64,000 bases of DNA from a bacterium (GTDB taxonomy: Bacteria > Desulfobacterota > DSWW01), in the NCBI GenBank assembly GCA_015486285.1, contig WFRX01000140.1, forward strand, positions 1,621 through 65,620, in the 5' to 3' direction. A model generated the notes under the pieces. That model was given only the letters and a program-made list of their open reading frames with translations. It was not told where the DNA came from and did not search any database. Each line of letters begins with the position of its first letter. Position 1 is the stretch's first letter. Positions 13,033 through 52,383 of the stretch are shown piece by piece. A program made the position numbers and the translations under genes.

Positions 13033-13120
13033 GAAGAATGGCCGGCAGCCGACCTTGTCCCGTTTCGGATGGAGCGGGAAGGTCGGGAATGAAACGGACT
13101 TTCATGGGGAGGGCTTACGG

Positions 13121-14203: not shown

Positions 14204-14274
14204 CGAGCGAGCAGTTTCTGAGGAATAGACGTAAAGAACCCAACAAGCACCCGACAAGAAGAAGGAGACCGTTC

Positions 14275-14964: not shown

Positions 14965-14994
14965 CAGGGCACGAGCAGGAGGGAGGTGTTTTCG

Positions 14995-16020: not shown

Positions 16021-16093
16021 GCTTCTGTAAGGAGGGTCCGAGGATCTGGATGGGTTTGGTGTGGATCACTTGACCATTGCGAAGGAAAACCAA

Positions 16094-17035: not shown

Positions 17036-17196
17036 GGAACGAAATGTTCCTGCGTATATGACGGGGCTTTGCGTGCGTGCGCGTGTTGCTCGAGGATTGC
17101 AACGCCTTCAGGATATGTGTTAAACGCATGCATGCCGCTCACATTCCGGCAGCGGTTTCAAAACATCCGGAAGAGAGACGAAGGAGGATGGATCCA

Positions 17197-21095: not shown

Positions 21096-22325
21096 ATGCA
21101 GGTTACACCCGCCCACCGGACCCTGGCCGAGAAATTCGTGTTCCAGCAGGGCCGCCGGGACGCCTTCGTACCCGACTCGCTCCTGGACCTGGTCACCTTT
21201 CTGTATACCGAAGAAGAGGCGGAGATCGTCTCCGCCCTGGGGTTTGTCGGCCTTCCGGCGCGGGCCGTCGCGCGCAGGCTGAGGCGCCCTGTCCGGGAGG
21301 TGAGGCCGATCCTGGAATCCCTTGCCGACCGGTTCCTGATCGCGGGCCTTTCGTTGAAGGGCATCCAGGTCTACGGCCGCATGCCCCTTGCCCCGGGGGT
21401 CTTCGAGGCCCAGATGATCCGCAGCAAAGGGGAATTCGGCGAGTACTACAAGGAATTTTCCCGCCTCTTCGAGGCCTTCTACGAAGAGATCTGCACGTGG
21501 CTCAAGCCCAGGCTGGAGGGGAAAGACGTGCGCTTCGGCCGGATCATTCCGGTCCAGCAGTCCCTCGAGCATTCGCCCGGCATCAGCGTGATGGCCCTTG
21601 CCTCGGACAAATTTCTGGAGACGGTCGATCGGAACCACAGTTTCGCCCTGGTTCATGTGTGCAGCTGCCGGCACGAGGCGGATCTGCTCGGAAAGGGGTG
21701 CGGTAAGCCGAAGGACGTGTGCGCGGCCATGGGCCGGCTGGCGGACCTGGTCGTTGACAAGGGGATGGGCCGGAGGGTCTCGAAGGAGGAGTTCGTCGAC
21801 GCGAAGGTGCGAGCGGCCGACGCGGGGCTGGTGAACCTGGTCGACAACCTGGAAAACCCGCTCCAGGTGTGCTCGTGCTGCGGGTGCTGTTGCGGTGCCC
21901 TTCGCATCCTCAGCCGGTTCAACATCCCTACCATCATCGCGAAAAGCCACTTCGAGGCGGCGATCGACCCGGGCAAGTGCGTCGGCTGTGGTATCTGCGC
22001 GGAGGTCTGCCCCATGGACGCGATCACCCTGCAGAAGGCGACGCCGAGGGCGAGAAAGAAGAAAACGGCGGTGATCGATCCGGCCCGCTGCATCGGCTGC
22101 GGCCTGTGCGTGGTCAAGTGCGACAAACAGAGGGCGGTCTCACTTCGTGCGCGCGAAGACTACAAGCCGCCCGCAAAGAGCGTGGTGGAGTACACCTTGA
22201 ACCGGTATCTGGAGGTGAAAGGTGTCGAAAACCCGATCCTGGACAGGGTCGGGCTGGGCGTGAGCCGCCTGCTCGAAAAATACTCCCCCCTTCACGTTTC
22301 AGGGCCCGGGTACCGGCCGAAATAG
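21096..22325 (+). CDS. Fe-S cluster protein: two CxxCxxCxxxCP ferredoxin motifs plus an unusual Cys-rich CSCCGCCCG motif
   Basis: KCVGCGICAEVCP and RCIGCGLCVVKC dicluster motifs; VCSCCGCCCGALR upstream. ATG 21096 with a GAGGAG SD. Confidence 0.55.
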   Translation: MQVTPAHRTLAEKFVFQQGRRDAFVPDSLLDLVTFLYTEEEAEIVSALGFVGLPARAVARRLRRPVREVRPILESLADRFLIAGLSLKGIQVYGRMPLAPGVFEAQMIRSKGEFGEYYKEFSRLFEAFYEEICTWLKPRLEGKDVRFGRIIPVQQSLEHSPGISVMALASDKFLETVDRNHSFALVHVCSCRHEADLLGKGCGKPKDVCAAMGRLADLVVDKGMGRRVSKEEFVDAKVRAADAGLVNLVDNLENPLQVCSCCGCCCGALRILSRFNIPTIIAKSHFEAAIDPGKCVGCGICAEVCPMDAITLQKATPRARKKKTAVIDPARCIGCGLCVVKCDKQRAVSLRAREDYKPPAKSVVEYTLNRYLEVKGVENPILDRVGLGVSRLLEKYSPLHVSGPGYRPK

Positions 22326-22393
22326 GATCCGGCGGCCGGCTTCGGGAAGCATGCCGCGCAAAAGATGGATCGGCCGGAACACCTGCCCGCCGG

Positions 22394-23551
22394 TCAGGAA
22401 GGCCGGCTATAGAATTCCTGCACGGAGGCGACCACCCTGCCCGCGTCTTCGTCCGACATCTCGTAATAGAGCGGCAGCCTCAGCAGTCGGCCGCTCAAGT
22501 CTTCGGTTACGGCCAGATGTCCGGCCGTCCGCCCGTATCTTCTCCCGGCCGGCGAAGAATGAAGGGGCACATAGTGGATCACGGCCAGGATTCCGCAGGC
22601 GTCGAGGTGCTTGATGAGCCGCGTCCGCTCCTCCGTGGTGCGGGCAATCAGGTAGAAAAGATGGCCGTTGGCCACACTGTCGTTTTCCACCCATGGAAGC
22701 CGAACGAGCCCTGCCTCCTCGAGGGGGCGCAGGGAGCGGTGGTACAGGTCGAAGATGCGGCGCCTGGCGGCGATGATCTTTTCCGCCTGCTCGAGCTGGG
22801 CGAACAGGAAGGCCCCCACCAGTTCGCCGGGCAGGAAAGAGGATCCGATATCCACCCACGTGTAATGGTCCACCTCGCCCGCGAAGAACCGGCTCCGGTT
22901 CGTTCCCTTCTCGCGGATGACCTCGGCCCTTTCGACCAGCCGCGTATCGTTGACGAGCAGGGCCCCCCCTTCGCCGCTGATGATGTTTTTCGTCTCGTGG
23001 AAGCTCAGGCAGCCCAGGTGCCCGATGGTGCCGAGGCATCGACCCTGGTAGGTGGACAGCAGCGCCTGCGCCGCATCCTCGACCACCCACAAGCCGTGCC
23101 TCTCGGCGATTTCCATGATCACGTCCATGGCGCACGGTCCGCCCGCGTAATGCATGGGCACGACCGCCTTCGTCTTCGGCGTGATCGCCTTCTCCACCTG
23201 CTGCTCGTCCATGTTGAGGGTGTCGGGCCGGATGTCCACGAAAACGGGACACGCCCCGCGCAACACGAAGGCGTTGGCCGTGGAGACGAAGGTGAAAGAA
23301 GGCACGATGACTTCATCGCCGGGCTGGATGTCGCAGAGGATGGCGGCCATTTCGAGCGCGGCCGTGCATGAATGGGTCAGCAAGGCCCTGGCGCAGCCCA
23401 GGGTTCGCTCCAGCCATGCCTGGCATTGCTTCGAAAAGGGGCCGTCCCCGGCGAGGTGCGAGGAGGCCATGACCGCCTGGGCGATATAGTGCAGCTCCTT
23501 GCCGACCAGGAACGGTTTGTTGAAGGGGATCCTCGTTTCGTTCTTTTTCAG
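22394..23551 (-). CDS. DegT/DnrJ/EryC1/StrS-family sugar aminotransferase (WecE/ArnB-like, makes a nucleotide-4-amino-4,6-dideoxy- or 4-amino-pentose sugar)
   Basis: Near-colinear match to remembered E. coli WecE (IPFNKPF..., LLTHSCTAALEMAA, GDEVIVPSFTFVSTANAFVLRGA, HETKNIISGEGGALLVND, REKGTNRS). No in-frame ATG/GTG/TTG before IPFNKPF; a CTG at 23549-23551 sits 5 nt after a GGGAGGA SD (start uncertain). Confidence 0.75.
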   Translation of the reverse strand: MKKNETRIPFNKPFLVGKELHYIAQAVMASSHLAGDGPFSKQCQAWLERTLGCARALLTHSCTAALEMAAILCDIQPGDEVIVPSFTFVSTANAFVLRGACPVFVDIRPDTLNMDEQQVEKAITPKTKAVVPMHYAGGPCAMDVIMEIAERHGLWVVEDAAQALLSTYQGRCLGTIGHLGCLSFHETKNIISGEGGALLVNDTRLVERAEVIREKGTNRSRFFAGEVDHYTWVDIGSSFLPGELVGAFLFAQLEQAEKIIAARRRIFDLYHRSLRPLEEAGLVRLPWVENDSVANGHLFYLIARTTEERTRLIKHLDACGILAVIHYVPLHSSPAGRRYGRTAGHLAVTEDLSGRLLRLPLYYEMSDEDAGRVVASVQEFYSRPS

Positions 23552-23583
23552 GGTGTCCTCCCGGTCTCCTCGATACGCGGATT

Positions 23584-24237
23584 TCAGTCGTCGAAGGACA
23601 GCGTCTTCTTGACGACGGCCGGAACACCGGCGATCAGCGCATGGTCCGGCACGTCTTTCGTAACGACGGATCCCGCGGCGGTCTGCACGTTCATGCCGAC
23701 GCGGACCCCGTCGATGCAGGTCGTGTTGATGCCGAGAAAACAACACGGACCGATTTCGGTATGTCCGGCAAGGTTTACGGCCGGTGCGCAGAATGTATGG
23801 GCCCCGATCGTCACATGATGCGAGACGAAGCACCGGGAAGACAGGAGCACGTTCTCCCCGACACGGGCATGCATGTCGATCGTGCAGTCGACCAGCACGA
23901 TCGATCCCTCCTTGAGAAGGGCGGACTTCTCCACGTACGAGCTTGGGTGTACGAATGTGGCGATCGGAACGCCCCGTTCCTTCAGGGCCGCATAGATCTC
24001 CCTGCGGAATTTCCTCTGTTTGTATCCGACAGCGATCGCCACGGCGTCGAAGGCCCCTTTCCCGAACGCCGCCGGGATGTCTTTCGCCCCGCCGAGGACG
24101 GGCCTGTCATGCTTGAGCGCGCCCGCTGCCTCGAAATCGTCGAACATGCCGACGATGCTCGCGAATCCGGTCTCTTCAAAATAGTAGATCAGGCGATCAC
24201 TCAGCTCGCCCGACCCCACCATGGCAATCTTCTGCAT
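23584..24237 (-). CDS. Hexapeptide-repeat (left-handed beta-helix) sugar N-acetyltransferase, NeuD/PglD family
   Basis: N-terminal Rossmann-like MVGSGELSDRL plus C-terminal hexapeptide repeats, in a sugar-modification context. Confidence 0.7.
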   Translation of the reverse strand: MQKIAMVGSGELSDRLIYYFEETGFASIVGMFDDFEAAGALKHDRPVLGGAKDIPAAFGKGAFDAVAIAVGYKQRKFRREIYAALKERGVPIATFVHPSSYVEKSALLKEGSIVLVDCTIDMHARVGENVLLSSRCFVSHHVTIGAHTFCAPAVNLAGHTEIGPCCFLGINTTCIDGVRVGMNVQTAAGSVVTKDVPDHALIAGVPAVVKKTLSFDD

Positions 24238-24262
24238 ACGTTCCCTGCTTTACGAGGCCGCC

Positions 24263-24296
24263 CCAAAAGTCCCATCTGCGGCTGAATCGGCTTGGA
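24263..24296 (+). repeat. Copy 3 of the short repeat family (CCCCAAAAGTCCCATCTGCGGCTGAATCGGCTTGG), fused to the left arm of the palindromic element
   Basis: 19-nt identity (CAAAAGTCCCATYTGCGGC) with copy 1. Confidence 0.45.
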
Positions 24297-24475
24297 AAGA
24301 TCGCTGTGGTTCCATGCGGTACTCGAGTGATTCCGTGCAGTCCGGGGTGCCGTCGGAGATTTGCGCCGGGCGACTTCGGGGGAGGGAGAGACGGAGCCCA
24401 AGCAAATCGGAGACGGGATCCCGGACTGCACGGAACGGCAAGCTTCCTGTGAAACATAGCGATCTTTCCAAGCCG
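24286..24475. repeat. About 190-bp nested palindromic (long-hairpin) intergenic element between the GT2 and acetyltransferase genes
   Basis: Outer arms ATCGGCTTGGAAAGATCGCT (24286-24305) / TAGCGATCTTTCCAAGCCGCGAT (24453-24475). Inner arms TTCCGTGCAGTCCGGG (24338-24353) / CCCGGACTGCACGGAA (24417-24432). Further partial symmetry around 24380. Small artefactual ORFs on both strands in the track reflect the symmetry. Confidence 0.6.
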
Positions 24476-24480
24476 CGATG

Positions 24481-25410
24481 CTAGACATCTTTTTCCCGGA
24501 TCAGGTACTGCGGCGCCTGGTTCACCTCCTGAATGATGCGCAGAAGATACTCTCCGATGATGCCGAGCGAAAACATGACGGCCCCCGAAAAGAACAGGAG
24601 GAGAAGAACAAGGGTCATCCACCCGGGCACGGTGATGCGCCCCAGGAAGAAGAGCGTCAAGTAATATCCGCCGAGGGCGAAGGCGATGAACATGCTCAGA
24701 AGCCCCATGAAAAACACCCCTTTCAGGGGAAGGGTGCTGTGATACAGCACGCCGTGAAGGAAGTGCCGGGCGAGCTTTCCCGCCGTGTAGGTCGTTCTTC
24801 CGTGGGGGCGCGGGAGATGCTCTACGGTGATGTTTCCGATCTTGTCCGTTATTTGCAGGATCAGCAGGCCCACCGCGGGGTTCGGTGTGCGCATGTGGAG
24901 GAGGTTTTCGATCACGGCCCGCCGAATGATCCGGAAATTGCTCATTTGAAACACCGGATCCTGCTTGAACATCATGGAAACGAGTCGGCGGTACGCAAAG
25001 CTCCCCGCATTTCTCACCCGGGACTGTTTCCTGGTTGCCGGTGTTCCGCAGACCATGTCGAGCCCTGTCCGGCGAATCTCCTCGATCAATCTCGGGATCT
25101 CCTCGGGCGGGTTCTGAAGGTCATCATCGATCGTGACGACATACTCTCCGGAAGCGAAAGAAAAGCCGCACATGAGGGCGTTGTGCTGCCCGAAATTTCT
25201 CGTGAGCCTGACGATTTTCACCCGCTTGTCCTGCTCACGCAGCGATTGCATGACCTCCCAGCTCGAGTCCCCGCCCCCGTCCTCCACGAGGATCAGCTCG
25301 TAATCGCCCCGCACGCCTTCCAGCGCCTTGTCGATGCGTTCATAGAGTTCCCGCAAGGACCGTTCGCTCTTGTAAACCGGTACAACGATGGAATAGAGCG
25401 CTTCGCTCAC
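24481..25410 (-). CDS. GT2-family polyprenyl-phosphate sugar transferase (ArnC/GtrB/DPM1-like) with C-terminal TM helices
   Basis: YSIVVPVYKSE...LVEDGGGD...TIDDDLQNPPEEI GT-A motifs plus two C-terminal TM segments. GTG start overlapping the Kce stop. Confidence 0.8.
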   Translation of the reverse strand: MSEALYSIVVPVYKSERSLRELYERIDKALEGVRGDYELILVEDGGGDSSWEVMQSLREQDKRVKIVRLTRNFGQHNALMCGFSFASGEYVVTIDDDLQNPPEEIPRLIEEIRRTGLDMVCGTPATRKQSRVRNAGSFAYRRLVSMMFKQDPVFQMSNFRIIRRAVIENLLHMRTPNPAVGLLILQITDKIGNITVEHLPRPHGRTTYTAGKLARHFLHGVLYHSTLPLKGVFFMGLLSMFIAFALGGYYLTLFFLGRITVPGWMTLVLLLLFFSGAVMFSLGIIGEYLLRIIQEVNQAPQYLIREKDV

Positions 25411-26246
25411 GATGCCAACCCCAGGCGTTCTCTTGTCGTTCTTATGCCGGCGGGCCGCCTCCCCATGGCTTTCGCGATGTCGAGCACCCGTTCGATGAGA
25501 TCCCGGTTGGAAGCCGGCCGCGTCCGATCTTCATCGTACCATATGTTGTCTTCCAGCCCCACCCGTACACCGCCGCCCGCGACGATGGCCATGGCGTTCA
25601 TTCGCAGCTGCGAATCGCCCACACCCCCTACGGACCAGATCGCGCCTTCCGGCAGATCATTGATCATAAGGCCCAGAGAAAGCATGTTGGCCTGCGCACA
25701 CGCGATGTTCCCCAAAATCAAATTGAAATAATAGGGCGGTTTGAGCCATCCCTTCCGGATCAGGTACTTCGCATAATTGATCATCCCGAGATCGAAAACT
25801 TCCAGCTCCGGTCGGATGCCCTTGTCCATCATCTTCCTGGCCAGGGCCTGAATCATCTCCGGGCTGTTCACGCTCGCCTGCTTGTTGAAATTGAGCGAAC
25901 TGAGCGTCAGGCTTCCGAAATCCGGCTTCAACCCGCCCGCCAGGTCCAGGGCCTCGGAGCGCTGCTCGAACTCGAAGAAATTCCTGCCGCTCGTCGAAAC
26001 GCTGATCACCAGGTCCTTGTGGCTGGAACGAATGCCGCTGATGATCGCGGCGTACACCTCTTTCTTGTAGGTCGGAAGGCCGGTTGCCGGGTCCCGGGCA
26101 TGAAGGTGAACCATGTTCACGCCCATCTCCGCGACCTCGTTCACCTGCTCGACGATTTCTTCGGGCGTAACCGGCACCTTGGATGTCGTCTCCTTGGTCG
26201 GGATCATGCCCGTGGGCGTGAAATTGATGATCAGATCTTTCTTCAT
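25407..26246 (-). CDS. BKACE-family (3-keto-5-aminohexanoate cleavage enzyme-like, DUF849) protein
   Basis: TIM-barrel Kce-like sequence (MKKDLIINFTPTGM..., VHLHARDP, GVRVGLEDN). Start at internal ATG 26246 overlapping the WbqC stop. Confidence 0.6.
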   Translation of the reverse strand: MKKDLIINFTPTGMIPTKETTSKVPVTPEEIVEQVNEVAEMGVNMVHLHARDPATGLPTYKKEVYAAIISGIRSSHKDLVISVSTSGRNFFEFEQRSEALDLAGGLKPDFGSLTLSSLNFNKQASVNSPEMIQALARKMMDKGIRPELEVFDLGMINYAKYLIRKGWLKPPYYFNLILGNIACAQANMLSLGLMINDLPEGAIWSVGGVGDSQLRMNAMAIVAGGGVRVGLEDNIWYDEDRTRPASNRDLIERVLDIAKAMGRRPAGIRTTRERLGLAS

Positions 26247-26986
26247 GCCCGAGCGCCTCCTTCCCGGCCCCTCGAGGGGGATGGAAAACTCAACATGCAC
26301 TCCTTCGCCCCTTCCGGCCCCTTGTTCAGGATCAGATCGAGGATGCTCACCTCATGGATGAAAGGGGGAGAGAAGAGCTGATCATATTCCGGATATCCTC
26401 CGTAGTCCATCCAGTTCACGCGGATCCCCTGCTCCCGGAACAGGCCTTCGTCCAGGTAGGCCTTTGCCGCGGGGCCGGAAAGATACTCCGTAGCTCCGGC
26501 CTGCAGGCAGAGGTGGACCAGGCGCCCGGTCTTCCCCTCCACCGCCGGCCCGTAGTCCATGGACCAGCTCAACCGTGTTCGTATGCCGAGCAGGTCGGCG
26601 ATGGCCCGCAGGAAGAGAGCGTTGATCCTGCTCAGGTGCGTTTCCTCTTCGCATTCCGAGTACAGGCTTTGCAGCAGGGGGCGCAAGGGCTCGAAATGGG
26701 GGGCCCGCGCATAATTCCTGCAAAGGGACTTCCAGTGCCTGACGGGCCACCTCCTGTCGCTCACCACGACGTCCCGGATCTCCTGACCGTACCGGCCTTT
26801 CGTCTTCACGGGGATGGTCAACCAGACGGCGCCCCCCGGCGTCTTGATCCGATTTCGGTTCCGCCATCCGCGCGGAGAGTATTGGACATCATCGTAGAGG
26901 ATAAACTCGTCTACTTTGTTGATGAGGTCGAAATATCCCTTCCATGGGATATAGCATGATTGAACGATCGCTACACATTTTCCCAT
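26243..26986 (-). CDS. WbqC-like family protein (polysaccharide-cluster protein of unknown function)
   Basis: MGKCVAIVQSCYIPWKGYFDLI... resembles WbqC. The long GC-rich N-terminal extension in the track is ignored; the ATG is at 26984-26986. Confidence 0.6.
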   Translation of the reverse strand: MGKCVAIVQSCYIPWKGYFDLINKVDEFILYDDVQYSPRGWRNRNRIKTPGGAVWLTIPVKTKGRYGQEIRDVVVSDRRWPVRHWKSLCRNYARAPHFEPLRPLLQSLYSECEEETHLSRINALFLRAIADLLGIRTRLSWSMDYGPAVEGKTGRLVHLCLQAGATEYLSGPAAKAYLDEGLFREQGIRVNWMDYGGYPEYDQLFSPPFIHEVSILDLILNKGPEGAKECMLSFPSPSRGREGGARA

Positions 26987-26997
26987 CCGTTCGCCTG

Positions 26998-28785
26998 TCA
27001 GTCTTTTCCGTCCCGTTGGAGATGCGGCGGCCCGAGCCGCCTGTCCAGCCAGGCGGAAGCATCCTGAACCCTGGTTCGCTGATTCGGGCATTTGAATCGT
27101 TCCCGCATGCCCGCCAGTATCCTGCGGGCGCTCCGCCAGTCCCGGATCCTTGCAGCGAAGTCGAAAACGAACAGGGCCTGTGTGATATTCCGGACTTTTT
27201 CCAGGCCCCGTCCCCTGCGAGGAACGCCCCGCGGCAGGGTCACATCCTTGCGGGCAAAGACCGCGGCCGCGGGGCCGTAGAAAGCGAGCTTCCAGTCCGG
27301 GGCGTGCAGAAACCAGCCGATCAGGCCCCGGCACTCATAGCGTACACAGCAGACCTGAAAGGGGAAGTCCCGCAAGAAGGCCCGGACCCTGACCCCCGAA
27401 TGAAAGGCCCCGTACCGGTCGAGCCACGCCTTGAACGGAAACTGGCGGGGATCGATCATCACCTTCTCTTCAGGCCACAGCGCCCAGAGCAGGTAGCCCC
27501 CGCTGCCGTAATCGTTTCCCAGCCGGTAGCGGGGGAGGTGGCTCCGGATGAAGTCCGCCGCTTCCACCGGATTCTGGTAGGAGATACCGAAGCCGCACCA
27601 TCTCGAACCGTAGGGTTTGCAGACGGCGTCGAAGCATGCGCGGGCTCCGAAAAAGACGCACGCCAGAAGGATCAAACCGCCCAGGGCGGAGGCCGGGAGG
27701 CGGCCGTCCGGCCGGAATCCCCGAGGCCTGCGAGCCAGGAGATGGACCGCGCTCAGGGAAAAGACCGGCGCCCAGTAATAGGTCGCCCGCAGGAAGCGGG
27801 TGAACAGGAAGGCGAAGGCCAGGTTGGTCAGGAGGATCGCGTAGTCGGGACGCGGATGTTTCGTCCTGTGCGCCATCAGGCTCAGCAGGATCAGACCGGC
27901 CGCGGCCAGGTAGCTCGCGTAATGAAAGTGTGCCGCCCGCGGGTCCAGCGTGGACATATAGGCCTCGATGACCTTGAAGTATCCTTCCTGTGTATGGACG
28001 AGCAGGGAGGAGACGAGATGGGCGGGATATCGCCAGCCATAGGGGGTTACGAATATCGCGAGGCCGCTCAGGACAAGGGCGGAGAAGAACGGGGGCCGCA
28101 CGGCGGCCGGGATGGCCGCTTCGGGCGTGAAAAGCAGGTTCAGCGCCTCCCCGATCCCCATCACGAGGAAAAAGACCGCACCGAAAATGAAGCCGCCGTG
28201 GCTGTTGACCCACAGGAGCATGAGAGCGGGCAAGAGCCAGCAGGTACGCCGGGCCCTGTTTCCGCCCCCTTTGATCCGCAGCCAGGCGAGCACGGTAAGG
28301 GTCATGAATACATAGGAAAAGATCTCCGGCTTGATGTAGGCCGCGTTCTGCGACATGAGCACGCCGAGCAGGCAGATCAACCACGTCAGGGGATGTCCGG
28401 CAACCCCGAGCCGCCGGGCCAGGAGGTAGACGGCCAGCACAAAGATCAAGAGGCATGCATACCGGAAGGCAAACAGGGCGGGAAGGCCTCCCGCCGCGTG
28501 GAGGAGATACAGGAAGATCTCGGAAAGCCATGCGCAATAGACGGCGGCATTCTCGGCGGGCGTCCAGGTGAATGCGGTGTGGTCCGGGATGAGGGTCCGA
28601 TGCTCGATCAGGTAGCGCCCATACGCCATCTGCCACCAGAGATCCCCGTCCCGCACAGGCTCCGCATAGCGTATGCCCAGGGTCAACAGCACCACCAACC
28701 CGAGGGCCCAGGGCCAGACCCGGTGCCACTGTCTCTTGTCTGCCCGCGCCACGCCGTCCGCGGAGGCCGCCGGAATTCGCTTCAT
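26998..28785 (-). CDS. Multi-pass membrane glycosyltransferase, GT-C fold (ArnT/PMT, COG1807-like)
   Basis: 595 aa with about 11-13 TM segments; sits next to ArnC-like and ArnB-like genes. Start ATG 28783-28785 overlaps the stop of the upstream antiporter gene (ATGA). ORF 26998..30195 in the track is a fusion artefact across three genes. Confidence 0.55.
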   Translation of the reverse strand: MKRIPAASADGVARADKRQWHRVWPWALGLVVLLTLGIRYAEPVRDGDLWWQMAYGRYLIEHRTLIPDHTAFTWTPAENAAVYCAWLSEIFLYLLHAAGGLPALFAFRYACLLIFVLAVYLLARRLGVAGHPLTWLICLLGVLMSQNAAYIKPEIFSYVFMTLTVLAWLRIKGGGNRARRTCWLLPALMLLWVNSHGGFIFGAVFFLVMGIGEALNLLFTPEAAIPAAVRPPFFSALVLSGLAIFVTPYGWRYPAHLVSSLLVHTQEGYFKVIEAYMSTLDPRAAHFHYASYLAAAGLILLSLMAHRTKHPRPDYAILLTNLAFAFLFTRFLRATYYWAPVFSLSAVHLLARRPRGFRPDGRLPASALGGLILLACVFFGARACFDAVCKPYGSRWCGFGISYQNPVEAADFIRSHLPRYRLGNDYGSGGYLLWALWPEEKVMIDPRQFPFKAWLDRYGAFHSGVRVRAFLRDFPFQVCCVRYECRGLIGWFLHAPDWKLAFYGPAAAVFARKDVTLPRGVPRRGRGLEKVRNITQALFVFDFAARIRDWRSARRILAGMRERFKCPNQRTRVQDASAWLDRRLGPPHLQRDGKD

Positions 28786-30134
28786 CAACGCCCTCCGCCT
28801 GGAAGCTTCTGTGCCGTCCCCCTTGCCTCCCCGCTCTGCTCGAGAGCGAACTTGAACGCGATGGGGCCGATGATCTGATTGATCACAATGACCGCGAGCA
28901 GAAGGGTGAACAGGATCTCGCCCCCTTCCGGAAACCGCCGGGGAATGAGGCCGGCCAGGCCGATCGAGACGCCCGCCTGGGTAATGAAGCTCATGCCGTA
29001 GAGATTGCGCGTCTTGAAGGGGGCCCGGAGAAGCGCGAGCACGGAATGACACGCGATGAAGACGCCTGCGATCCGAATGCCCGCATAGAGTATCGCCACC
29101 TTCCACATCGCCCTGAGGGCATCCAGATCGAGATCCGTGCCGGCCAGGGCGAAGAAGACGACAAAGATCGGCAGGAAGGAGCGGTTGATGGTTGTCTCGT
29201 AGAAGGCTCCCTTTCCGAAAAGGTTCCGGAGAAAGAAGCCCGCGCTCATGCAGATCAGAAGCGGCTCCAGGTGCAGGGGGAGGCCGGCCATGATCGCGGA
29301 CTGCTCGGACAGGGCCTGCGAGAGCCTCGTGACCAGGAAGGCGACGCACAACAGGAAAAAGATTCCCTCCCTGCGGATCACCGTGACGTAGCCGCTCATG
29401 AACCACGCCAGGAAGAGGCCGAGCAGAAGAGAAAGGAAGAACTCGGCGGGTATCCGGAGCCAGAGGCCGCCGGTGTGGGCGGGCACGCCGGCTTCGGCGG
29501 CGCCCGCCAGGGCGAGAAACAGGGAAAAGAGCATGATGACCAGGATGTCCATGACCACCGTCACGCACAGTACGGACTCGGAGAAGTCCCCTGCCGCCCT
29601 GCACTCCTTGATGACCGCCAGGGTCGACGACGGAGAGCGTGCGATCGCCAGCGTGCCGAGCAGCGCCGCCAGGACGATCTTTTGCGCCGCCGGCAGGGCC
29701 GGCAGAGACCCGACGCGGGGAAGGGCGAAATAGAGAAAGGCGAAGATCGCACAGAAGACCGTTAACGGCACGACGACGATCAGGCCGGACAGGAGCCTCC
29801 ACTGCCGTTTCAGATTCTGTGTGCGGAGTTCGAGGCCCGCCGAAAGGGCGATAAAGGCCAGGGCGAGTTCGTCGATGAAACGGAGGGACGCCACCGACTC
29901 GGGAGAGAAGTATCCCAGGACATCGGGCCCGAGGAGGATGCCGGCGAAAAGGTATCCGGTAAGCCTCGGCAATCGGATCCTCGCCGTCCACTCGCCGAAG
30001 AGGTACGCGGCAAGCAGCAGAAAGCCGAAGTTCAAGGTGAGCTGTACTTCCGTGAGCGAGAAGGCGTGCGGAAAGGCCTTCAAGAGAAGTCCCTGCAGCA
30101 GCACCAGAACGGACAATACGAACAGATGGGTCAT
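28785..30134 (-). CDS. Cation:proton antiporter (CPA/Na+-H+ exchanger family), copy 2
   Basis: Polytopic membrane protein with a CPA-like fold and a GxxLGPxxLG-like N-terminus (LFAGILLGPDVLG). ATG at 30132-30134. Confidence 0.7.
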   Translation of the reverse strand: MTHLFVLSVLVLLQGLLLKAFPHAFSLTEVQLTLNFGFLLLAAYLFGEWTARIRLPRLTGYLFAGILLGPDVLGYFSPESVASLRFIDELALAFIALSAGLELRTQNLKRQWRLLSGLIVVVPLTVFCAIFAFLYFALPRVGSLPALPAAQKIVLAALLGTLAIARSPSSTLAVIKECRAAGDFSESVLCVTVVMDILVIMLFSLFLALAGAAEAGVPAHTGGLWLRIPAEFFLSLLLGLFLAWFMSGYVTVIRREGIFFLLCVAFLVTRLSQALSEQSAIMAGLPLHLEPLLICMSAGFFLRNLFGKGAFYETTINRSFLPIFVVFFALAGTDLDLDALRAMWKVAILYAGIRIAGVFIACHSVLALLRAPFKTRNLYGMSFITQAGVSIGLAGLIPRRFPEGGEILFTLLLAVIVINQIIGPIAFKFALEQSGEARGTAQKLPGGGR

Positions 30135-31339
30135 GTTTCTTTCGTGACATAGGCCAGCCCGAAGGGGCTGAGCACTTCGTTGAAAAGGATGGCAAGGAGC
30201 AGCACGGAAAAGGTCATGTTCAACAGGAGCGGAGGCGAAGGCCCTGCAATCCACAGATGAAAGTGAACGGCCAGTGCCGCCCCGATGCCCGCCTGGGAGG
30301 TGAGGCCCCAGCCGAGCGCATGAGCGCGCGGGTACGCCGGGTCGCGGAAGACCCGTCCGAGGAACATCGCCCCGGCGGCGCCCTGCGAAAGGGCGCGTAT
30401 CGCGACGTAGGCCAGGGCAAGCAGGACGGCAAGAGGGGCGCCGATCCTGAGATAGGCGCCCGCGATCATCAGGAAGATCAGATACAGGGGCCGCTCGATG
30501 CGCATCAGCAGATGGAAGGTCTCATCGCTTTTCAGGCTGAAATTGGCCAGAACCGCCCCGGCGATGAGGTGGATGAGAAGCGGTGAGACGCCGAGCAGGT
30601 AGGCCGCGCCGCCTCCGAACAGGACCAGCCCGATGACGATCAGGACCTTGTCCGCCTCCCCGAGGCGAGCCCGAAAGAGCATCAGCAGCAGGAGCCCCAT
30701 GAGGGTCCCGAGCAGGAGGCTGAAGGCCAGTTTTTCGAGAGGCGGGAGCGAAAGGCCGAATCCCCCCCCGGCGGGCTGGTGGAACCCGATGAGAACGCCG
30801 AAAAGAACGATGGCGATTACGTCGTTGATGCTGGCGACGAACTGCAGCACGATGCCCAGGGGACGCTTCTGTTTCGATGCCTGCTGCATCCAGAGCGCCA
30901 TCGACGTTTGGCCGGTACAGAGGGCCGTCACGGCGAGCACGGAAACGGCGAGGCCGAGATGCGGATCGGCCGGAAACCAGACACGCAGCAGGGCGTGGAG
31001 CCCTGCCGACACGAACAGGAGGAGGAAGCATCCGTACAGGAGGATCCAGAGATAGCTCGCTCGTCCGAACATCCGGAGGGCCTTCCCCTCCAGCTGAATG
31101 CCTGCGAGCAGCCCGATCCACCCGAGTCCGACGATCAGGAAAGGGCGCGCCCGCTCGAGGGTGGCGGGGTCCAGAACGCCGAGAAAGGAGTCGCCCAGCA
31201 GATAGCCCACCAGGAGGAACTCCGTTCCGGTCAGGAAGAAAAACCTCCCGGCCCGGGAAGGGAGGAGCTTCACAAAGCTCTTCCGATGGCCCGCGAGGGC
31301 GAGGATGGCGAGGAACAGGATGCCTGCTATCGTCTTCAA
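30131..31339 (-). CDS. Cation:proton antiporter (CPA family), copy 1
   Basis: 402-aa polytopic membrane protein resembling Na+/H+ exchangers. TTG start at 31337-31339 with a GAGGTGG SD. Confidence 0.65.
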   Translation of the reverse strand: MKTIAGILFLAILALAGHRKSFVKLLPSRAGRFFFLTGTEFLLVGYLLGDSFLGVLDPATLERARPFLIVGLGWIGLLAGIQLEGKALRMFGRASYLWILLYGCFLLLFVSAGLHALLRVWFPADPHLGLAVSVLAVTALCTGQTSMALWMQQASKQKRPLGIVLQFVASINDVIAIVLFGVLIGFHQPAGGGFGLSLPPLEKLAFSLLLGTLMGLLLLMLFRARLGEADKVLIVIGLVLFGGGAAYLLGVSPLLIHLIAGAVLANFSLKSDETFHLLMRIERPLYLIFLMIAGAYLRIGAPLAVLLALAYVAIRALSQGAAGAMFLGRVFRDPAYPRAHALGWGLTSQAGIGAALAVHFHLWIAGPSPPLLLNMTFSVLLLAILFNEVLSPFGLAYVTKET

Positions 31340-31385
31340 ACCGCCACCTCTCGAGGCACACGAATGGACTCGCCGGGAGGGGTTC

Positions 31386-31733
31386 TCAATCCCCCAACGT
31401 CTCCGGTCCCGGACCGATGAGATGTTCCACAGGCAACGTGAAAAGAATCCCTCGTTTCCCGTTCTCGATCCCCCCCACGGTCAGATCGATGGTGGCCAGG
31501 GCCTGTTGGAGCAACTCTTGGTCCCTGATTACGGAGAGGATGATCTTGTTGTAAGGCTTCGATCCCTTCAAGATGGAACGAAACCCGGCGAAGATCGGTA
31601 TTTCCTGGCTCAGGAACTGCAACATGCCGACGCTATCCAGGATGGATGCCCCGGGAACGCCGATCTCCAGGAGCGCCTCGAGCACTTCCGTGAGATACCG
31701 GTCTTCATTCAGGATGTATACGAGGGCCCACAT
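31386..31733 (-). CDS. PII-like (GlnB-fold, DUF190/COG1993-type) small regulatory protein
   Basis: 115 aa with a ferredoxin-like PII fold signature (ILNEDRYLTEVLEALLEIGVPGASILDSVG...); found with transporters. Confidence 0.5.
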   Translation of the reverse strand: MWALVYILNEDRYLTEVLEALLEIGVPGASILDSVGMLQFLSQEIPIFAGFRSILKGSKPYNKIILSVIRDQELLQQALATIDLTVGGIENGKRGILFTLPVEHLIGPGPETLGD

Positions 31734-31738
31734 GCCGC

Positions 31739-32206
31739 CTACGACTCCCTCTTGCCTTCTCTTTCACGCAGGAGCCGGTAGACCTGTTCCTTCGTGGATG
31801 CCTTCCAGAGGGCGTCGACGAAACGCTCATCCCGCAGGATGCGCCCGAGGGTGGCCAGGGCGCCGAGGGAAAGCCCGGGCGTGTCCGGATCGCCGAACAG
31901 ACCGATGAGCACCACGACCGGCTTGCCGTCCACGGAGTCGAAGGGGATCGGTTGCTTGAGGGTGGCGACGTAGACGTGCAGGCCCTTGATCCCCGGGACG
32001 AGGGTGTGGGGAACCCCGACGGCGTTTCCGATGCCGGTACTCATCGTCTCCTCCCGCTCGAAAAGCTTGTCCCGAAGGGTCTCCTGCGGGATGCCGATAC
32101 CGCTTTGGGCGACCGCCAGGGCAAGCCACTCCAGGGCCGCCTCCTTCGAGTCGAGGGGACAGCGGATGTAGATGTGTTCCGGATTCAGATACCGGACGAG
32201 CGCCAA
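31739..32206 (-). CDS. PTS EIIA(Ntr)-type (fructose/mannitol-family EIIA, PtsN-like) regulatory protein
   Basis: EIIA-2 fold with a conserved His region (GIGNAVGVPH). TTG start with a GGGAGGA SD. Confidence 0.65.
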   Translation of the reverse strand: MALVRYLNPEHIYIRCPLDSKEAALEWLALAVAQSGIGIPQETLRDKLFEREETMSTGIGNAVGVPHTLVPGIKGLHVYVATLKQPIPFDSVDGKPVVVLIGLFGDPDTPGLSLGALATLGRILRDERFVDALWKASTKEQVYRLLREREGKRES

Positions 32207-32218
32207 GCCGGTCCTCCC

Positions 32219-32728
32219 TCAATCCTCGACGAGAATGAACTGCTCGATATCCCGAACCGAGCCAATGCGTTTTTCCCTCCAGACGGGTTCGAATTTGAGT
32301 CCGATCCTGATCTTGGACTCGTCGTCGATCGGGAAATAATGCTGAAACACGGTGTCCGCCCCTTCGAACTGGAAGAAACCGTATCCGAAAGGAACAGGCC
32401 TCAGGTCCCCGGTCTCGGGATCGATGTAAGGGAACCGGATGATGGTGTAGGTTTCCAGGGTGGCGCGCGGGCCTACCTCGACCTCTTCCTCCATCTTGGT
32501 GAAGCACGGCGCGCAAACCTCGCGGGGCGGAACGTAGACCTTGCCGCATTTCGGGCAGCGGATCCCGACAAACCGCTTGTTCTTCTGCATCTCCTCCAGG
32601 AATCGGCTCCCGTAACGACCGACACTGTACAGGAACGGCTGTACCGCCTCCTTTGCCGAGTGAATGGTCAGGAGATCTTCTTTTTGAAGCTCTTGTTCCT
32701 TTGAGCTTTTCTTTTCCGTCGGGCTCAT
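32219..32728 (-). CDS. DUF35 Zn-ribbon/OB-fold protein (thiolase-associated scaffold)
   Basis: CPKCGKVYVPPREVCAPC zinc ribbon followed by an OB fold. Confidence 0.75.
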   Translation of the reverse strand: MSPTEKKSSKEQELQKEDLLTIHSAKEAVQPFLYSVGRYGSRFLEEMQKNKRFVGIRCPKCGKVYVPPREVCAPCFTKMEEEVEVGPRATLETYTIIRFPYIDPETGDLRPVPFGYGFFQFEGADTVFQHYFPIDDESKIRIGLKFEPVWREKRIGSVRDIEQFILVED

Positions 32729-32742
32729 GGTCCACCCCTCCT

Positions 32743-33906
32743 CTATTCAGGCTTCTTCTTTCCGTAAGCCAGCGTATCCGTCCACAGGCAGCCTCCAAAC
32801 CCGGTCGCGACCCCCAGGTTCACGTCCGGCACCTGCCTGTCCCCGGCCTTCCCCTGGATCTGCAGGGCGATCTCCGCGGACCGGATCAGGGCGGTAGCGC
32901 CGATGCAGTTCGTGGAGATCACACCCCCTGACGGGTTGATCGGAAGCGCCCCTCCCAGATCGGTCACGCCGTCCCAGACCAGCCGGGGGCCTTCCCCCTT
33001 CTTGGCGAGCCCCATGTCCTCGATCCAGATCAGGCCCGCCCAGGAAAAGGGCTGGTACAGCTCGATCACGTCGATTTCCTTGAGCGGCTCCTTGATGCCC
33101 ACCTTTCTGTAAAGCTCCTGAGAGGCCCGTGCCATGGAGAACAGGGCGCCTCCGGAAAAGTCGGCATCACTTACATAGCTGTACATGTGGCGGCTTGCCA
33201 CGCCGAGCACCCAGGCCGGCTGAGGGCAGAGCTTTTCGGCGATTCCCTCGGCGGCATAGACAACGGCGCAGGCGCCGTCCGTTCTCGGACACATGTCCAG
33301 CAGGCAGACCGGGTCCGCCAGCATGGGGGAAGCGAGCACCTCTTCGATGGTGACCTCCTTGCGCAGGTGTGCGTGCGGATTCAGGCAGGCGTGGCGCCGG
33401 TCCCTCACCGAAACGCGGGCGGCGTCCTTGGGCGTGGCCCCGTACATGTCCATATAGGACTGTGCCGTAACGGCCAGGCCGGCGATGGCCCCCGCGAAAA
33501 AGGGCCGGTCCCAGATCGGGTCGAAGGCGGTGTTGATGGCGCCCGTGGTATCGGACTCGGAGTTCTTCTCCCAACCGATGACGAGCACCTTGTCAAAGGC
33601 GCCCGAGGCGACCATGTGGTATCCCGCGATCGCCAGGGTGCTTCCGGTGGTTCCGCCCGTTGTAAGCTTCATGGTGGGCTTCATGAACCCGCCGGACCCG
33701 TCCACGCTCCAGCAGTCCACATAGTTGATCCCTTCGAAGTGGTCCATGTTTCCGATGACCACGGCATCGATGTCGTCGATCGTGAGTTCCCCGTCCTCCA
33801 GACAGCGGGTCACCGCCTCGTTGATGATCTCCTGACCGTTCACGTCCCGCCGAATCGAACGGTGGTGGGTTTGACCAGTTGCTACGATTGCCGCTCTTCT
33901 TGCCAT
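32743..33906 (-). CDS. Thiolase-like protein (SCP-x/DUF35-associated thiolase), copy 2
   Basis: MARRAAIVATGQT..., NPSGG..., and a thiolase C-terminal domain. ATG at 33904-33906. Confidence 0.75.
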   Translation of the reverse strand: MARRAAIVATGQTHHRSIRRDVNGQEIINEAVTRCLEDGELTIDDIDAVVIGNMDHFEGINYVDCWSVDGSGGFMKPTMKLTTGGTTGSTLAIAGYHMVASGAFDKVLVIGWEKNSESDTTGAINTAFDPIWDRPFFAGAIAGLAVTAQSYMDMYGATPKDAARVSVRDRRHACLNPHAHLRKEVTIEEVLASPMLADPVCLLDMCPRTDGACAVVYAAEGIAEKLCPQPAWVLGVASRHMYSYVSDADFSGGALFSMARASQELYRKVGIKEPLKEIDVIELYQPFSWAGLIWIEDMGLAKKGEGPRLVWDGVTDLGGALPINPSGGVISTNCIGATALIRSAEIALQIQGKAGDRQVPDVNLGVATGFGGCLWTDTLAYGKKKPE

Positions 33907-33917
33907 ATCGTCACCCC

Positions 33918-35063
33918 CTATTCTTTCCCGAGGATCCAGACGCAGTGCGACTGGCCGGCGACCCCGTTGACGCCGTGCGCCAGGGCCGTCCGCACGTCCT
34001 TGTCCACCTGCATGTCTCCCGCCTCCCCACGTATCTGGCGGACCGCCTCCGCGATCCGGATGAGTCCCGCAGCGATCACCGGATGAGATGCCAGGAGCCC
34101 GCCGGAAGGGTTGACCGGGATATCGCCCGTTTTCCCGGTGGCCCCGGATTCGGCAAGCTTTCCGCCTCCTCCCTGCTCGCACAGCCCGAGGCCCTCGGTC
34201 CACATGAGCTCCTGATACGAAAACGCGTCGTAGACCTCGGCCACATCGATCTCCTTGCGGGGGTCCGAGATGCCCGCCGCGGCATAGGCCTTTTTCGCCG
34301 CTTTTTCCAGGGCGGAGTATTCGGCCAGATCGCGGTCGCCCAGGAGATAGTTGTCCATGCAGAAGGAAACGCCCTTGATCCATGCCGGCTTCCCGCCGAT
34401 CTTCCTGGCTCTGTCTTCGTTGGCAATGACGACCGCCACGGCTCCGTCCGAAACGGGAGAGCAGTCGTAGAGCTTCAGGGGATCGCAGATCATCCGGGAG
34501 CCCATCACATCCTCGACCGACAGGTCCAGATGCAGGTGCGCGTTCGGGTTGCCCAAAGCGTTTCGATGGTTCTTCGAGCTTACGACCGCGCATTGTTCCT
34601 CGGAGATGTTGTGTCGGTCCATGTACCTCCGGGCTTGCAGCGCACAGGCGGAAACCATGTCGAGGCCGAGGCTGCGCACATAGATCGGGTCGAAGGCGGC
34701 ATTCGTGATGTAGGCGGAGATGCTCTCCGAGCCCTTTGAGTAGGCAGTGACCAGGGTCGTACCGTAGTGTCCGGACAGGCAGCGGCACATCCCGTAAAAC
34801 GCCCCGAACGCTCCGTCTCCCTCGACACAGGAGATGTTCCGGTCCCAGCAGCCGCTCACATCTCCTGTGGCCATGGAGGCGATGGTGCGGCCGTCCCAGA
34901 AATCGTTCGAGGTCGTGATGACGTTGTCGATGTCGTCGATCGTGATGCCGGCATCCTCCAGGGCGGCGACGACGGCGGGATACACCAGCTCAGGGTAATT
35001 GAACTCCTTGAACCGGCCTGCTGCCTTGGTCTGCCCGATGCCGACGATAGCGGCTCTTTCCAT
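33918..35063 (-). CDS. Thiolase-like protein (SCP-x type), copy 1
   Basis: MERAAIVGIGQTK..., VNPSGGLLASHPVIAAGL. ATG at 35061-35063. Confidence 0.75.
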   Translation of the reverse strand: MERAAIVGIGQTKAAGRFKEFNYPELVYPAVVAALEDAGITIDDIDNVITTSNDFWDGRTIASMATGDVSGCWDRNISCVEGDGAFGAFYGMCRCLSGHYGTTLVTAYSKGSESISAYITNAAFDPIYVRSLGLDMVSACALQARRYMDRHNISEEQCAVVSSKNHRNALGNPNAHLHLDLSVEDVMGSRMICDPLKLYDCSPVSDGAVAVVIANEDRARKIGGKPAWIKGVSFCMDNYLLGDRDLAEYSALEKAAKKAYAAAGISDPRKEIDVAEVYDAFSYQELMWTEGLGLCEQGGGGKLAESGATGKTGDIPVNPSGGLLASHPVIAAGLIRIAEAVRQIRGEAGDMQVDKDVRTALAHGVNGVAGQSHCVWILGKE

Positions 35064-35128
35064 TTGGCACCTCACTGTTCGTTCGTTGGTCGATGGCGTG
35101 AAGCGGTTCCGGCGATTCCCCGGGGGAC

Positions 35129-35587
35129 TCAAACCGGCTTGAAGTGCTCGACATCCAGAATCTTGCCCGTTCGCTCTTCGGCGAAGACGGCCTTCACCCG
35201 CATGCCCGCGCGGACCGCGCCGGGCTCGATCTCGCCCAGGAGGTGAACCAGTCCCGTGTCCGCGCCGTCGAGCCTGATCACGGCATACACAAAGGGCGGT
35301 TTCAGCGGCATGATGCCCGTATCCCGCCTCGCGACCGTGAAGGTTTCTATGACTCCCTCGTCGGAGACGTCCACCCAGTCTCCGGTCTCCACGAAGCAGT
35401 ACGGGCAGACCTTCCGGGGAGGCATGAGCACCTTGGCGCACTTGGGACATTTCTTGCCCAGGAATTTCTTCTCGTTTTTCAAGGTGAGCAGGAAACGACT
35501 GGCGGTCTCGCCCGCCTGCCAGGCATAGGGCACCTTGATCTGGCTCTCGTAGACCCGTGGTTCCACACTTTCCCAGACGTTCGACAT
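35129..35587 (-). CDS. DUF35 Zn-ribbon/OB-fold protein
   Basis: CPKCAKVLMPPRKVCPYC zinc ribbon followed by an OB fold. Confidence 0.75.
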   Translation of the reverse strand: MSNVWESVEPRVYESQIKVPYAWQAGETASRFLLTLKNEKKFLGKKCPKCAKVLMPPRKVCPYCFVETGDWVDVSDEGVIETFTVARRDTGIMPLKPPFVYAVIRLDGADTGLVHLLGEIEPGAVRAGMRVKAVFAEERTGKILDVEHFKPV

Positions 35588-36572: not shown

Positions 36573-36651
36573 CTCGGGTTTCCTCGCATGGTGACGCTCG
36601 CATTATTCATGCCCTCTGACGGCCTGTCAATCCCGCATGGCCGGGCTCCTT

Positions 36652-52319: not shown

Positions 52320-52383
52320 GTCTGGTGACTGCGCTATACGAAAAAGATGGAGTGCTCGACCCCTGTTTTCCCTGAGGTCCGGC

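Follow-up and report, generated by a model that had tools for sequence, protein, structure and literature searches.

A candidate periplasmic glycosylation module beside thiolase-like and antiporter modules in a co-directional gene run of a Thermodesulfobacteriota genome

The window analysed here is a 64,000-nt stretch of bacterial DNA (contig WFRX01000140.1 of assembly GCA_015486285.1, positions 1,621 to 65,620), and its subject is a run of 14 co-directional minus-strand genes that occupies approximately 13 kb between positions 35587 and 22394. The run contains thiolase-like and DUF35 genes (module 1), a cassette of two small regulators and two cation:proton antiporters (CPA; module 2), and a set of sugar enzymes headed by a 595-aa membrane protein of predicted GT-C fold, which we call MP595 (module 3). 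Genes were placed using open reading frames (ORFs), a codon-usage score trained on the region, G+C content at third codon positions (GC3), and coverage by hidden Markov models (HMMs); the window is approximately 62% G+C, and long spurious ORFs are frequent there. The family calls of a first-pass annotation of this DNA were all upheld by HMM, fold, or transitive homology, with Pfam support for both DUF35 proteins, both thiolases, PTS_EIIA_2, both Na_H_Exchanger proteins, WbqC, BKACE, GT2, hexapeptide/NeuD, and DegT. Read along the minus strand, the features and the spacing between them are as follows.

35129-35587, minus strand: DUF35a, 152 aa, zinc ribbon plus OB-fold (Pfam OB_ChsH2_C, 2.3e-14; zf-ChsH2, 1.4e-9); 65-nt gap to ThlA
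33918-35063, minus strand: ThlA, 381 aa, SCP-x-type thiolase-like protein (Pfam Thiolase_C_1, 7e-40); 11-nt gap to ThlB
32743-33906, minus strand: ThlB, 387 aa, thiolase-like paralogue (Pfam); 14-nt gap to DUF35b
32219-32728, minus strand: DUF35b, 169 aa (Pfam zf-ChsH2, OB_ChsH2_C); 12-nt gap to EIIA
31739-32206, minus strand: EIIA-2 family regulatory protein, 155 aa, TTG start (Pfam PTS_EIIA_2, 5.4e-27, 95 bits); 5-nt gap to the PII-like gene
31386-31733, minus strand: PII-like small protein, 115 aa, paired with EIIA; 46-nt gap to CPA1
30131-31339, minus strand: CPA1 cation:proton antiporter, 402 aa (Pfam Na_H_Exchanger, 4e-8, profile positions 22-364 of 375); 4-nt overlap with CPA2 (ATGA, 30131-30134)
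28785-30134, minus strand: CPA2 cation:proton antiporter, 449 aa (Pfam Na_H_Exchanger, 1.4e-17; weak CPA2 subfamily match); 1-nt overlap with the GT-C gene (TGATG, 28785)
26998-28785, minus strand: MP595, predicted GT-C membrane glycosyltransferase, 595 aa, from fold prediction; 11-nt gap to WbqC
26243-26986, minus strand: WbqC-family protein, 247 aa (Pfam WbqC, 2e-75); 4-nt overlap with BKACE (ATGA, 26243-26246)
25407-26246, minus strand: BKACE-family enzyme, 279 aa (Pfam PF05853, 2.5e-83, 280 bits against a cutoff of 24.8, positions 2-274 of 274); 4-nt overlap with GT2 (GTGA, 25407-25410)
24481-25410, minus strand: predicted GT2 polyprenyl-phosphate sugar synthase, ArnC/GtrB-like, 309 aa, GTG start (Pfam Glycos_transf_2, 4e-32); 243-nt gap to NeuD, with the palindrome inside
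24288-24475, minus strand: imperfect palindrome of 188 nt with inverted repeats, between GT2 and NeuD
23584-24237, minus strand: NeuD/PglB/VioB-type sugar N-acyltransferase, 217 aa (Pfam Hexapep, PglD_N); 32-nt gap to DegT
22394-23551, minus strand: WecE-type dTDP-4-keto-6-deoxyhexose 4-aminotransferase (DegT), 385 aa, apparent CTG start, last gene of the run

The first-pass annotation had described an operon of serially overlapping genes with a lower limit at 23551. That position is only the start codon of the aminotransferase gene, the body of which reaches 22394, and the next gene past it (Fer4, 21096-22325) is convergent on the plus strand. Four of the six overlaps that had been listed are genuine, while those at 31733 and 26986 are gaps of 5 and 11 nt; the tight co-directional run is real, although the 65- and 46-nt gaps within it had gone unmentioned. 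Upstream, the same strand continues to 41570 through unrelated genes (an outer membrane protein (OMP)-like gene, pyruvate kinase, penicillin amidase, and a LOG-family gene), and co-directionality alone therefore does not delimit an operon. Start/stop overlaps of 1 and 4 nt are frequent in bacterial operons, so the packing seen here is not statistically unusual. Consensus scans gave counts near chance, with 5 promoter-like sites against 3.1 expected from shuffled sequence and 22 terminator-like sites against 15. An intrinsic terminator within the cluster was dropped as a candidate, as all minus-strand terminator-like matches fall inside coding sequence and their count is about that of the shuffle. 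As far as spacing goes, one transcript could run from 35587 to 22394, the possible exceptions being the palindrome-bearing 243-nt gap and the gaps of 65 and 46 nt. Upstream of the OMP-like gene (35799-36572), at 36602-36630 on the minus strand, there is a near-consensus sigma-70-type promoter (TTGACA-17-AATAAT, 11/12), and the OMP-like gene is also conserved upstream of DUF35a in three related loci (L006, L011, and L012).

Comparison with other genomes separates the run into parts. One genome per GTDB species was scanned with an alignment of the MP595 family, giving 80 loci against which all window proteins were searched by tblastn; 75 of these are distant (less than 65% MP595 identity), and many of the 75 are truncated contigs. 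Among the distant loci, a DegT gene lies near the MP595 homologue in 37 (in 19 it is at least 55% identical to the WecE-type protein of the window, often immediately adjacent) and a GT2 gene lies within 10 kb in 29, with one or the other present in 44. NeuD is found nearby in 13, WbqC in 6, and BKACE in 3. CPA1, CPA2, EIIA, the PII-like protein, ThlA, ThlB, DUF35a, and DUF35b were each found near an MP595 homologue in 0 of the 75, even at E <= 0.01 with no coverage filter. One distant genome (L008) keeps only MP595, WbqC, and BKACE. WbqC homologues in unrelated genomes are directly followed by a GT2 gene of approximately 310 aa, and near this pair are found DegT, a hexapeptide transferase, LPG_synthase_TM, and large membrane proteins, one of which combines PMT_2 with tetratricopeptide repeats (TPRs). 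Judged by gene order, the glycosylation module is a recurrent cassette across phyla.

The whole arrangement is repeated in the four closest loci (L010, L011, L012, and L017; 67-72% MP595 identity), and the full gene set is not kept together beyond such close relatives. The OMP-like, Fer4, and Fe-ADH genes that flank the run, all unrelated to it, are syntenic in the same relatives. Clade-wide adjacency is therefore explained by general synteny, and it was rejected as proof of functional linkage. The earlier proposal that antiporters and glycosylation genes form one functional operon is not supported by these comparisons: the two are together in none of the 75 distant loci, the EIIA-PII-CPA cassette occurs alone, and the flanks are equally syntenic. 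We read the run, with a probability of about 0.65, as three independently conserved modules juxtaposed in one Thermodesulfobacteriota clade (Syntrophobacteria-like metagenome-assembled genomes, MAGs), of which module 3 (28785-22394) would serve periplasmic glycosylation of the Arn/Gtr kind.

MP595 has no match in Pfam or NCBIfam, and 19 aligned relatives searched against the same databases at E <= 1 matched only C-terminal TPR models and no GT-C model. TPR repeats end most of the relatives, while the MP595 of the window lacks them; in a comparison of the family profile with PDB sequences, the TPR part alone was matched. An HMM check had been suggested to decide between GT83 and GT39, and no HMM assigns the protein to either. 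Exact-sequence look-ups gave no record for MP595 of the window or for its BKACE protein. A confident AlphaFold model built from the family alignment (pLDDT 85.4, pTM 0.87) returned STT3 and PglB as the top Foldseek matches (E 1e-7 to 1e-5, TM ~0.5), followed by DPY19, AftD, and ArnT. Invariant in the family are D48 (in RDGDLWW) and D68-H69, located in the loop after the first transmembrane helix; from its position, this loop would be the one in which GT-C enzymes keep their catalytic acid. A further invariant stretch is R421-x-G-N-D-Y-x-x-G-G-Y-L-L-W. The features of GT-C membership present in MP595 are the predicted fold and a conserved acidic residue in the first external loop. Clustered at 50% identity, the family has 300 representatives at E <= 1e-30, rising to 2742 at E <= 1e-10, and its homologues come from several phyla, among them Thermodesulfobacteriota, Verrucomicrobiota, Nitrospirota, Pseudomonadota, Eisenbacteria, and Vulcanimicrobiota. 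A protein acceptor would be possible because the predicted fold is STT3/PMT-like and most members end in TPR, and the STT3/PMT/DPY19-like model together with the TPR tails points to protein acceptors at least as much as to lipid A.

The aminotransferase that ends the run matches the WecE equivalog NF008687 with 599.6 bits (cutoff 375; model positions 1-374 of 375) and TIGR02379 with 570.2 (cutoff 434.85), while the ArnB equivalog NF008658 gives 213.9 bits against a cutoff of 631. The choice between WecE and ArnB, which the first-pass annotation had left to HMMs, therefore falls to WecE, and the sugar would be a dTDP-4-amino-4,6-dideoxyhexose, of either Fuc4N or Qui4N configuration at C4, and not 4-amino-4-deoxyarabinose (Ara4N). 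Its apparent CTG start codon, preceded by a Shine-Dalgarno sequence, is kept in four genomes (window 23551, L004 ~12008, L006 ~16796, and L012 ~16937), none of which has an in-frame ATG, GTG, or TTG before the conserved RIPFNKPF motif. Public calls of the WecE-type gene (358 aa) begin at an internal ATG and so omit 27 residues that align with the beginning of the WecE model.

Residues 6-306 of the GT2 protein align with the structures of ArnC (E 3e-42) and the GtrB sll0501 (E 1.4e-41) when searched as PDB sequences. Against the ArnC equivalog it scores 169.6 bits (cutoff 529), and PgfS is likewise below cutoff, which would place it in the same enzyme class as ArnC and not as its orthologue. 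Two hydrophobic segments at the C-terminus, seen in the sequence, correspond to the membrane anchor of GtrB/ArnC/DPMS-type enzymes. The NeuD-like protein falls just under TIGR03570 (157.8 bits, cutoff 160.8, positions 2-201 of 202). The BKACE protein matches Kce structures over its full length and is not Kce, scoring 240.9 bits against an equivalog cutoff of 382. WbqC has a predicted BshC-like fold, and we propose that it may be an ATP-dependent carboxylate/amino-acid:aminosugar ligase that acylates the 4-amino group of the sugar, because the wbqC gene of Shewanella oneidensis is annotated as a putative glycine transferase beside genes for dTDP-4-amino-4,6-dideoxyglucose (dTDP-Qui4N) (PMC7253198) and E. 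coli O121 carries amide-linked N-acetylglycine (PMC7685785). Full-text literature searches returned no functional study of the WbqC family (PF08889), nor of BKACE with a glycosyltransferase.

The proposed pathway would begin with the WecE-type enzyme converting dTDP-4-keto-6-deoxyglucose, made by RmlA and RmlB encoded elsewhere, to a dTDP-4-amino-4,6-dideoxyhexose; neither RmlA nor RmlB was found among ten window genes sampled at 47-62 kb, the first 18 kb having had no HMM scan. WbqC, as a BshC-like ATP-dependent ligase, would join an amino acid or carboxylic acid to the 4-amino group. BKACE might, speculatively, supply or reshape that acid, because enzymes of this family interconvert beta-keto acids and acyl-CoAs (beta-keto acid + acetyl-CoA <-> acetoacetate + acyl-CoA) and because its gene overlaps both WbqC and GT2 by 4 nt. 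The NeuD/VioB-type transferase would place an acetyl group on the sugar amine or else on that of the amino acid joined to it, and the ArnC/GtrB-like GT2 would load the sugar onto undecaprenyl phosphate at the cytoplasmic face. After flipping, MP595 would move the sugar to an envelope acceptor on the outer side of the inner membrane. We infer the order of these steps, the identity of the acyl group, the use of a dTDP-sugar as GT2 donor, and the acceptor.

The first-pass annotation had predicted from an ArnB/ArnC/ArnT-like trio that an N-acylated 4-amino sugar is carried on undecaprenyl phosphate. In outline this is supported by the GT2 alignment, the GT-C fold, and co-occurrence across phyla, while the Arn identity fails. 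Its suggestion that thiolase and BKACE enzymes supply the acyl group is plausible for BKACE, which travels with WbqC and the GT-C gene in Eisenbacteria and other distant genomes, and unsupported for the thiolases (0 of 75 loci). It is possible, and we offer this tentatively, that MP595 founds a large GT-C family unannotated in databases, whose donor would be a new undecaprenyl-phosphate-linked N-(aminoacyl or beta-ketoacyl)-4-amino-4,6-dideoxyhexose that WbqC and BKACE would make from a dTDP-sugar, and whose acceptors would be periplasmic or surface proteins in a new form of bacterial protein glycosylation.

Module 2 (32206-28785) would be a self-contained ion-transport cassette in which the EIIA-2 and PII-like proteins regulate the CPA antiporter pair. 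The EIIA protein retains a GIGNAVGVPH histidine motif. It had been called PtsN-like; the PTS_EIIA_2 domain is present, while the PtsN equivalogs are below cutoff (TIGR01419, 58.4 against 138.7; NF008145, 55 against 221). The PII-like protein has no direct Pfam match at E <= 0.01. PF00543 is present in homologues that are 42-52% identical to it, and among PDB sequences the best match to it, weak (E 0.023) and nearly full-length, is P-II; the label is reasonable because of these homologues and this match. An EIIA gene precedes every one of the PII-like homologues. In one locus (L091, 9537-13040) EIIA-PII-CPA-CPA stands alone between unrelated genes with no thiolase and no glycosylation genes, and in a Calditrichia MAG (L090, 2167-5017) the EIIA-PII pair is followed by a ClC channel with CBS domains. 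In L006 (6289-8763) and L011, a single 824-aa CPA-Usp-EIIA fusion fills the slot of module 2, which supports regulation of the antiporter by the EIIA domain; the fusion has no BLAST similarity to CPA1 or CPA2. That this slot holds the fusion in L006 and L011 and a four-gene cassette at 28785-32206 of the window may be read as selection or as a replacement hot spot.

Module 1 (35587-32219), ordered DUF35-thiolase-thiolase-DUF35, would encode a heteromeric thiolase-like enzyme for cleavage or formation of acyl-CoA carbon-carbon bonds. DUF35a is preceded by an AT-richer gap of 211 bp. ThlA matches the NCBIfam 'thiolase domain-containing' model below its cutoffs. The two thiolase-like proteins align at 36% identity, and Cys81 of ThlA, which falls in the region where thiolases hold their nucleophile, is Thr in ThlB. 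This suggests a catalytic subunit paired with a non-catalytic one, and a separate DUF35 partner for each.

At the border between antiporters and glycosylation genes, the relatives differ from the window. Between CPA2 and the MP595 gene, L004 carries a PylC-like ATP-grasp gene and then a 230-bp spacer, and the window has neither of these. The best sigma-70-like site of the 14-kb L004 region (TCGACA-17-TATGAT, 10/12; a consensus match only) lies in this spacer, 43 nt before the MP595 start. Given what relatives carry at this junction, namely the ATP-grasp gene and the 230-bp spacer with its promoter-like site, the 1-nt CPA2/MP595 overlap is probably derived, a deletion having joined the glycosylation genes to the antiporter transcript. 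Three genes that relatives have are missing from the window, and all three losses are clean, with no pseudogene remnants.

L004 3818-4975: PylC-like ATP-grasp gene, absent from the window at 28785
L004 10189-11955: gene for a 588-aa membrane protein with no Pfam match, absent from the window at 23552-23583
L004 13149-14141: LPG_synthase_TM gene (MprF-like candidate flippase), absent from the window at 22326-22393

The 588-aa protein was considered as a possible paralogue of MP595 and rejected (hhalign probability 0.4%).

The palindrome between GT2 and NeuD has, as RNA, a minimum free energy of -118.7 kcal/mol (z -6.3). It matches nothing in Rfam at permissive thresholds, and no second copy was found within the window. 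A homologous element occupies the same site in L012 (14195-14440), with a core identical over 41 and 24 nt and outer arms that differ in sequence yet still pair; L010, L011, and L006 have only 30-45-nt gaps there. Exact copies of the 21-mer core GATTTGCTTGGGCTCCGTCTC are present in at least 120 metagenome contigs, frequently at the end of the contig, and the repeat family is also recorded in loci L092-L171. An alignment of 99 full-length copies from 98 of these 120 or more contigs, which also included the window and L012 elements, gave a median identity to the window copy of 67% in the core and 21% in the flanks, and all copies fold strongly. A shared core with unrelated flanks indicates a dispersed repeat resembling repetitive extragenic palindromic (REP) elements or miniature inverted-repeat transposable elements (MITEs), and not a dedicated regulatory structure. 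By analogy with the intercistronic REP elements of E. coli, the palindrome may influence the relative stability of upstream and downstream mRNA.

Several observations weigh against the three-module reading, and some of them favour one functionally integrated operon, serving either an envelope/ion-homeostasis stress response or a route by which the thiolase/DUF35 enzyme gives acetoacetyl units to BKACE for the acyl group. The three modules adjoin in all five clade genomes (the window and four relatives: L010, L011/L006, L012, and L017) at only 67-72% GT-C identity. Tight spacing crosses the module borders in the window, where the 12-nt DUF35b/EIIA gap and the -1-nt CPA2/GT-C junction leave no room for promoters and make co-transcription likely in this genome. 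The slot between DUF35b and the ATP-grasp gene holds an EIIA-bearing CPA antiporter in every clade genome, and the presence of two dissimilar ones, the L006 and L011 protein being non-homologous, could reflect selection. From established enzymology, acetoacetate and acetyl-CoA would also be common to thiolase and BKACE chemistry. We nevertheless hold an integrated operon to be unlikely, given that none of these genes lies near the GT-C gene in 75 distant loci, that module 2 is found alone elsewhere, that unrelated flanking genes are equally syntenic in the clade, and that in relatives the GT-C gene is preceded by a 230-bp spacer containing a promoter-like site. Other points count against the glycosylation part of the three-module reading. 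Missing from the window are the ATP-grasp gene, the 588-aa gene, and any candidate flippase, whereas relatives have LPG_synthase_TM (MprF-like) after DegT. The mechanism offered for WbqC is grounded in a predicted fold and an unreviewed annotation, and to our knowledge the characterised ArnC/GtrB-type enzymes use UDP- or GDP-sugars, not dTDP-sugars.

Alternatively, module 3 may be an ArnT-like system for modification of lipid A or the lipopolysaccharide core, with the GT-C enzyme decorating the phosphates of lipid A with a 4-amino sugar that is cationic or N-acylated, as the ArnC-like GT2 and the 4-amino sugar chemistry would allow. This seems improbable: the 19 MP595 family members have no sequence relation to ArnT, GT83, or PMT_2, the model is structurally at least as near to STT3, PglB, PMT, and DPY19, which act in protein glycosylation, and counterparts of ArnA, ArnD, and ArnE/F are absent. 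N-acylation would, in addition, abolish the positive charge on which Ara4N function depends. The loss of the ATP-grasp, 588-aa, and LPG_synthase_TM genes held by L004, L006, and L012, along with the dispersed repeat gained between GT2 and NeuD, could instead mark module 3 of the window as a decaying remnant whose product is no longer made. We consider this very unlikely, since the remaining module 3 genes are all intact, with coding-type GC3 of 0.64-0.78 (for the longest ORFs, several with non-coding 5' extensions), positive codon-usage scores after start trimming, Shine-Dalgarno sequences, and precise overlaps. L012 carries this repeat at the corresponding site and has a complete cluster; the deletions are clean, leaving no pseudogene fragments; and many distant loci likewise lack these accessory genes.

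Reading the run as three modules removes the misleading picture of antiporters and glycosylation genes as one system and illustrates how an apparent operon can arise by a deletion that fuses neighbouring units. It isolates a cassette conserved in multiple phyla that consists of a WecE-type aminotransferase, WbqC, an ArnC/GtrB-like GT2, and a GT-C protein of an unannotated family. The long-uncharacterised WbqC family gains a testable mechanism, namely ATP-dependent ligation to a 4-amino sugar by a BshC-like enzyme. If the pathway is as proposed, the envelope glycobiology of mostly uncultured anaerobes would gain a GT-C family and a lipid-linked sugar donor, both of them new. The EIIA plus PII-like cassette before CPA or ClC transporters is a second, smaller lead, for ion-transport regulation.

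Elsewhere in the window, a large-type bacterial signal recognition particle RNA (176 bits) and four tRNA genes were located at 63190-63457, 52245-52459, 58304-58390, and 63067-63158. In the annotation of an identical contig (L001), the region corresponding to approximately 9700-18400 carries MtrH, two URO-D-like genes, and a B12-binding protein beside an acyl-CoA dehydrogenase. These look like a corrinoid-dependent methyltransferase system of the O-demethylase type, which would fit an anaerobic lifestyle.

Each part of the run has relatives among known systems. In the manner of PtsN (EIIA-Ntr) control of K+ transport, GlnK-AmtB, and SbtB-SbtA, the EIIA-2 gene with its histidine motif and the PII-like gene stand directly upstream of ion transporters. 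Unlike those regulators, the two here form a fixed two-gene cassette joined to CPA pairs or a ClC channel, and the window EIIA scores below the PtsN cutoffs; no description of such a cassette was found, and no literature search was aimed at it. The palindrome resembles REP elements, bacterial interspersed mosaic elements (BIMEs), and MITEs in being a many-copy intergenic repeat of approximately 190 nt with a conserved core and unrelated flanks. Its family, at approximately 190-200 nt, is longer than E. coli REP and has no Rfam entry.

For module 3, the closest match in sugar chemistry is found in the O-antigen pathways for N-acetylglycyl dTDP-Qui4N (E. coli O121, Shigella dysenteriae 7, and S. 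oneidensis), which share the trio of a WecE/VioA aminotransferase, WbqC, and a NeuD/VioB acetyltransferase. In those pathways cytoplasmic glycosyltransferases put the sugar into a Wzx/Wzy O-unit, whereas in module 3 the trio is joined by a polyprenyl-phosphate GT2 and a GT-C protein, with BKACE as an extra. Compared with BshC and MshC, the cysteine:aminosugar ligases of bacillithiol and mycothiol synthesis, WbqC is without detectable sequence similarity and is half the size of BshC. The GtrA/GtrB/GtrC systems of O-antigen glucosylation and the CsbB/GtcA/YfhO systems of teichoic acid modification likewise combine a GtrB-like GT2 with a polytopic GT-C protein, a pairing that recurs across genomes. 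They differ in that module 3 has a modified amino-deoxyhexose donor with its own biosynthetic genes, a GT-C family that is different and often TPR-terminated, and, in place of a GtrA- or GtcA-type flippase, which the window lacks, an MprF-like LPG_synthase_TM in relatives.

The Arn pathway, which places L-Ara4N on lipid A, shares with module 3 a sugar 4-aminotransferase, N-acylation before lipid loading, an ArnC-like GT2 (matched over its full length), and a GT-C enzyme for periplasmic transfer. In contrast to Arn, the aminotransferase is of WecE and not ArnB type, and the sugar would be a dTDP-4-amino-4,6-dideoxyhexose and not a UDP-pentose. The 14 genes include no formyltransferase/decarboxylase, deformylase, or flippase of the small multidrug resistance type (ArnA, ArnD, and ArnE/F); MP595 is without sequence similarity to ArnT/GT83, and WbqC and BKACE are without Arn counterparts. 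The comparison thus supports an Arn-like logic that holds as an analogy and fails as membership of the Arn pathway.

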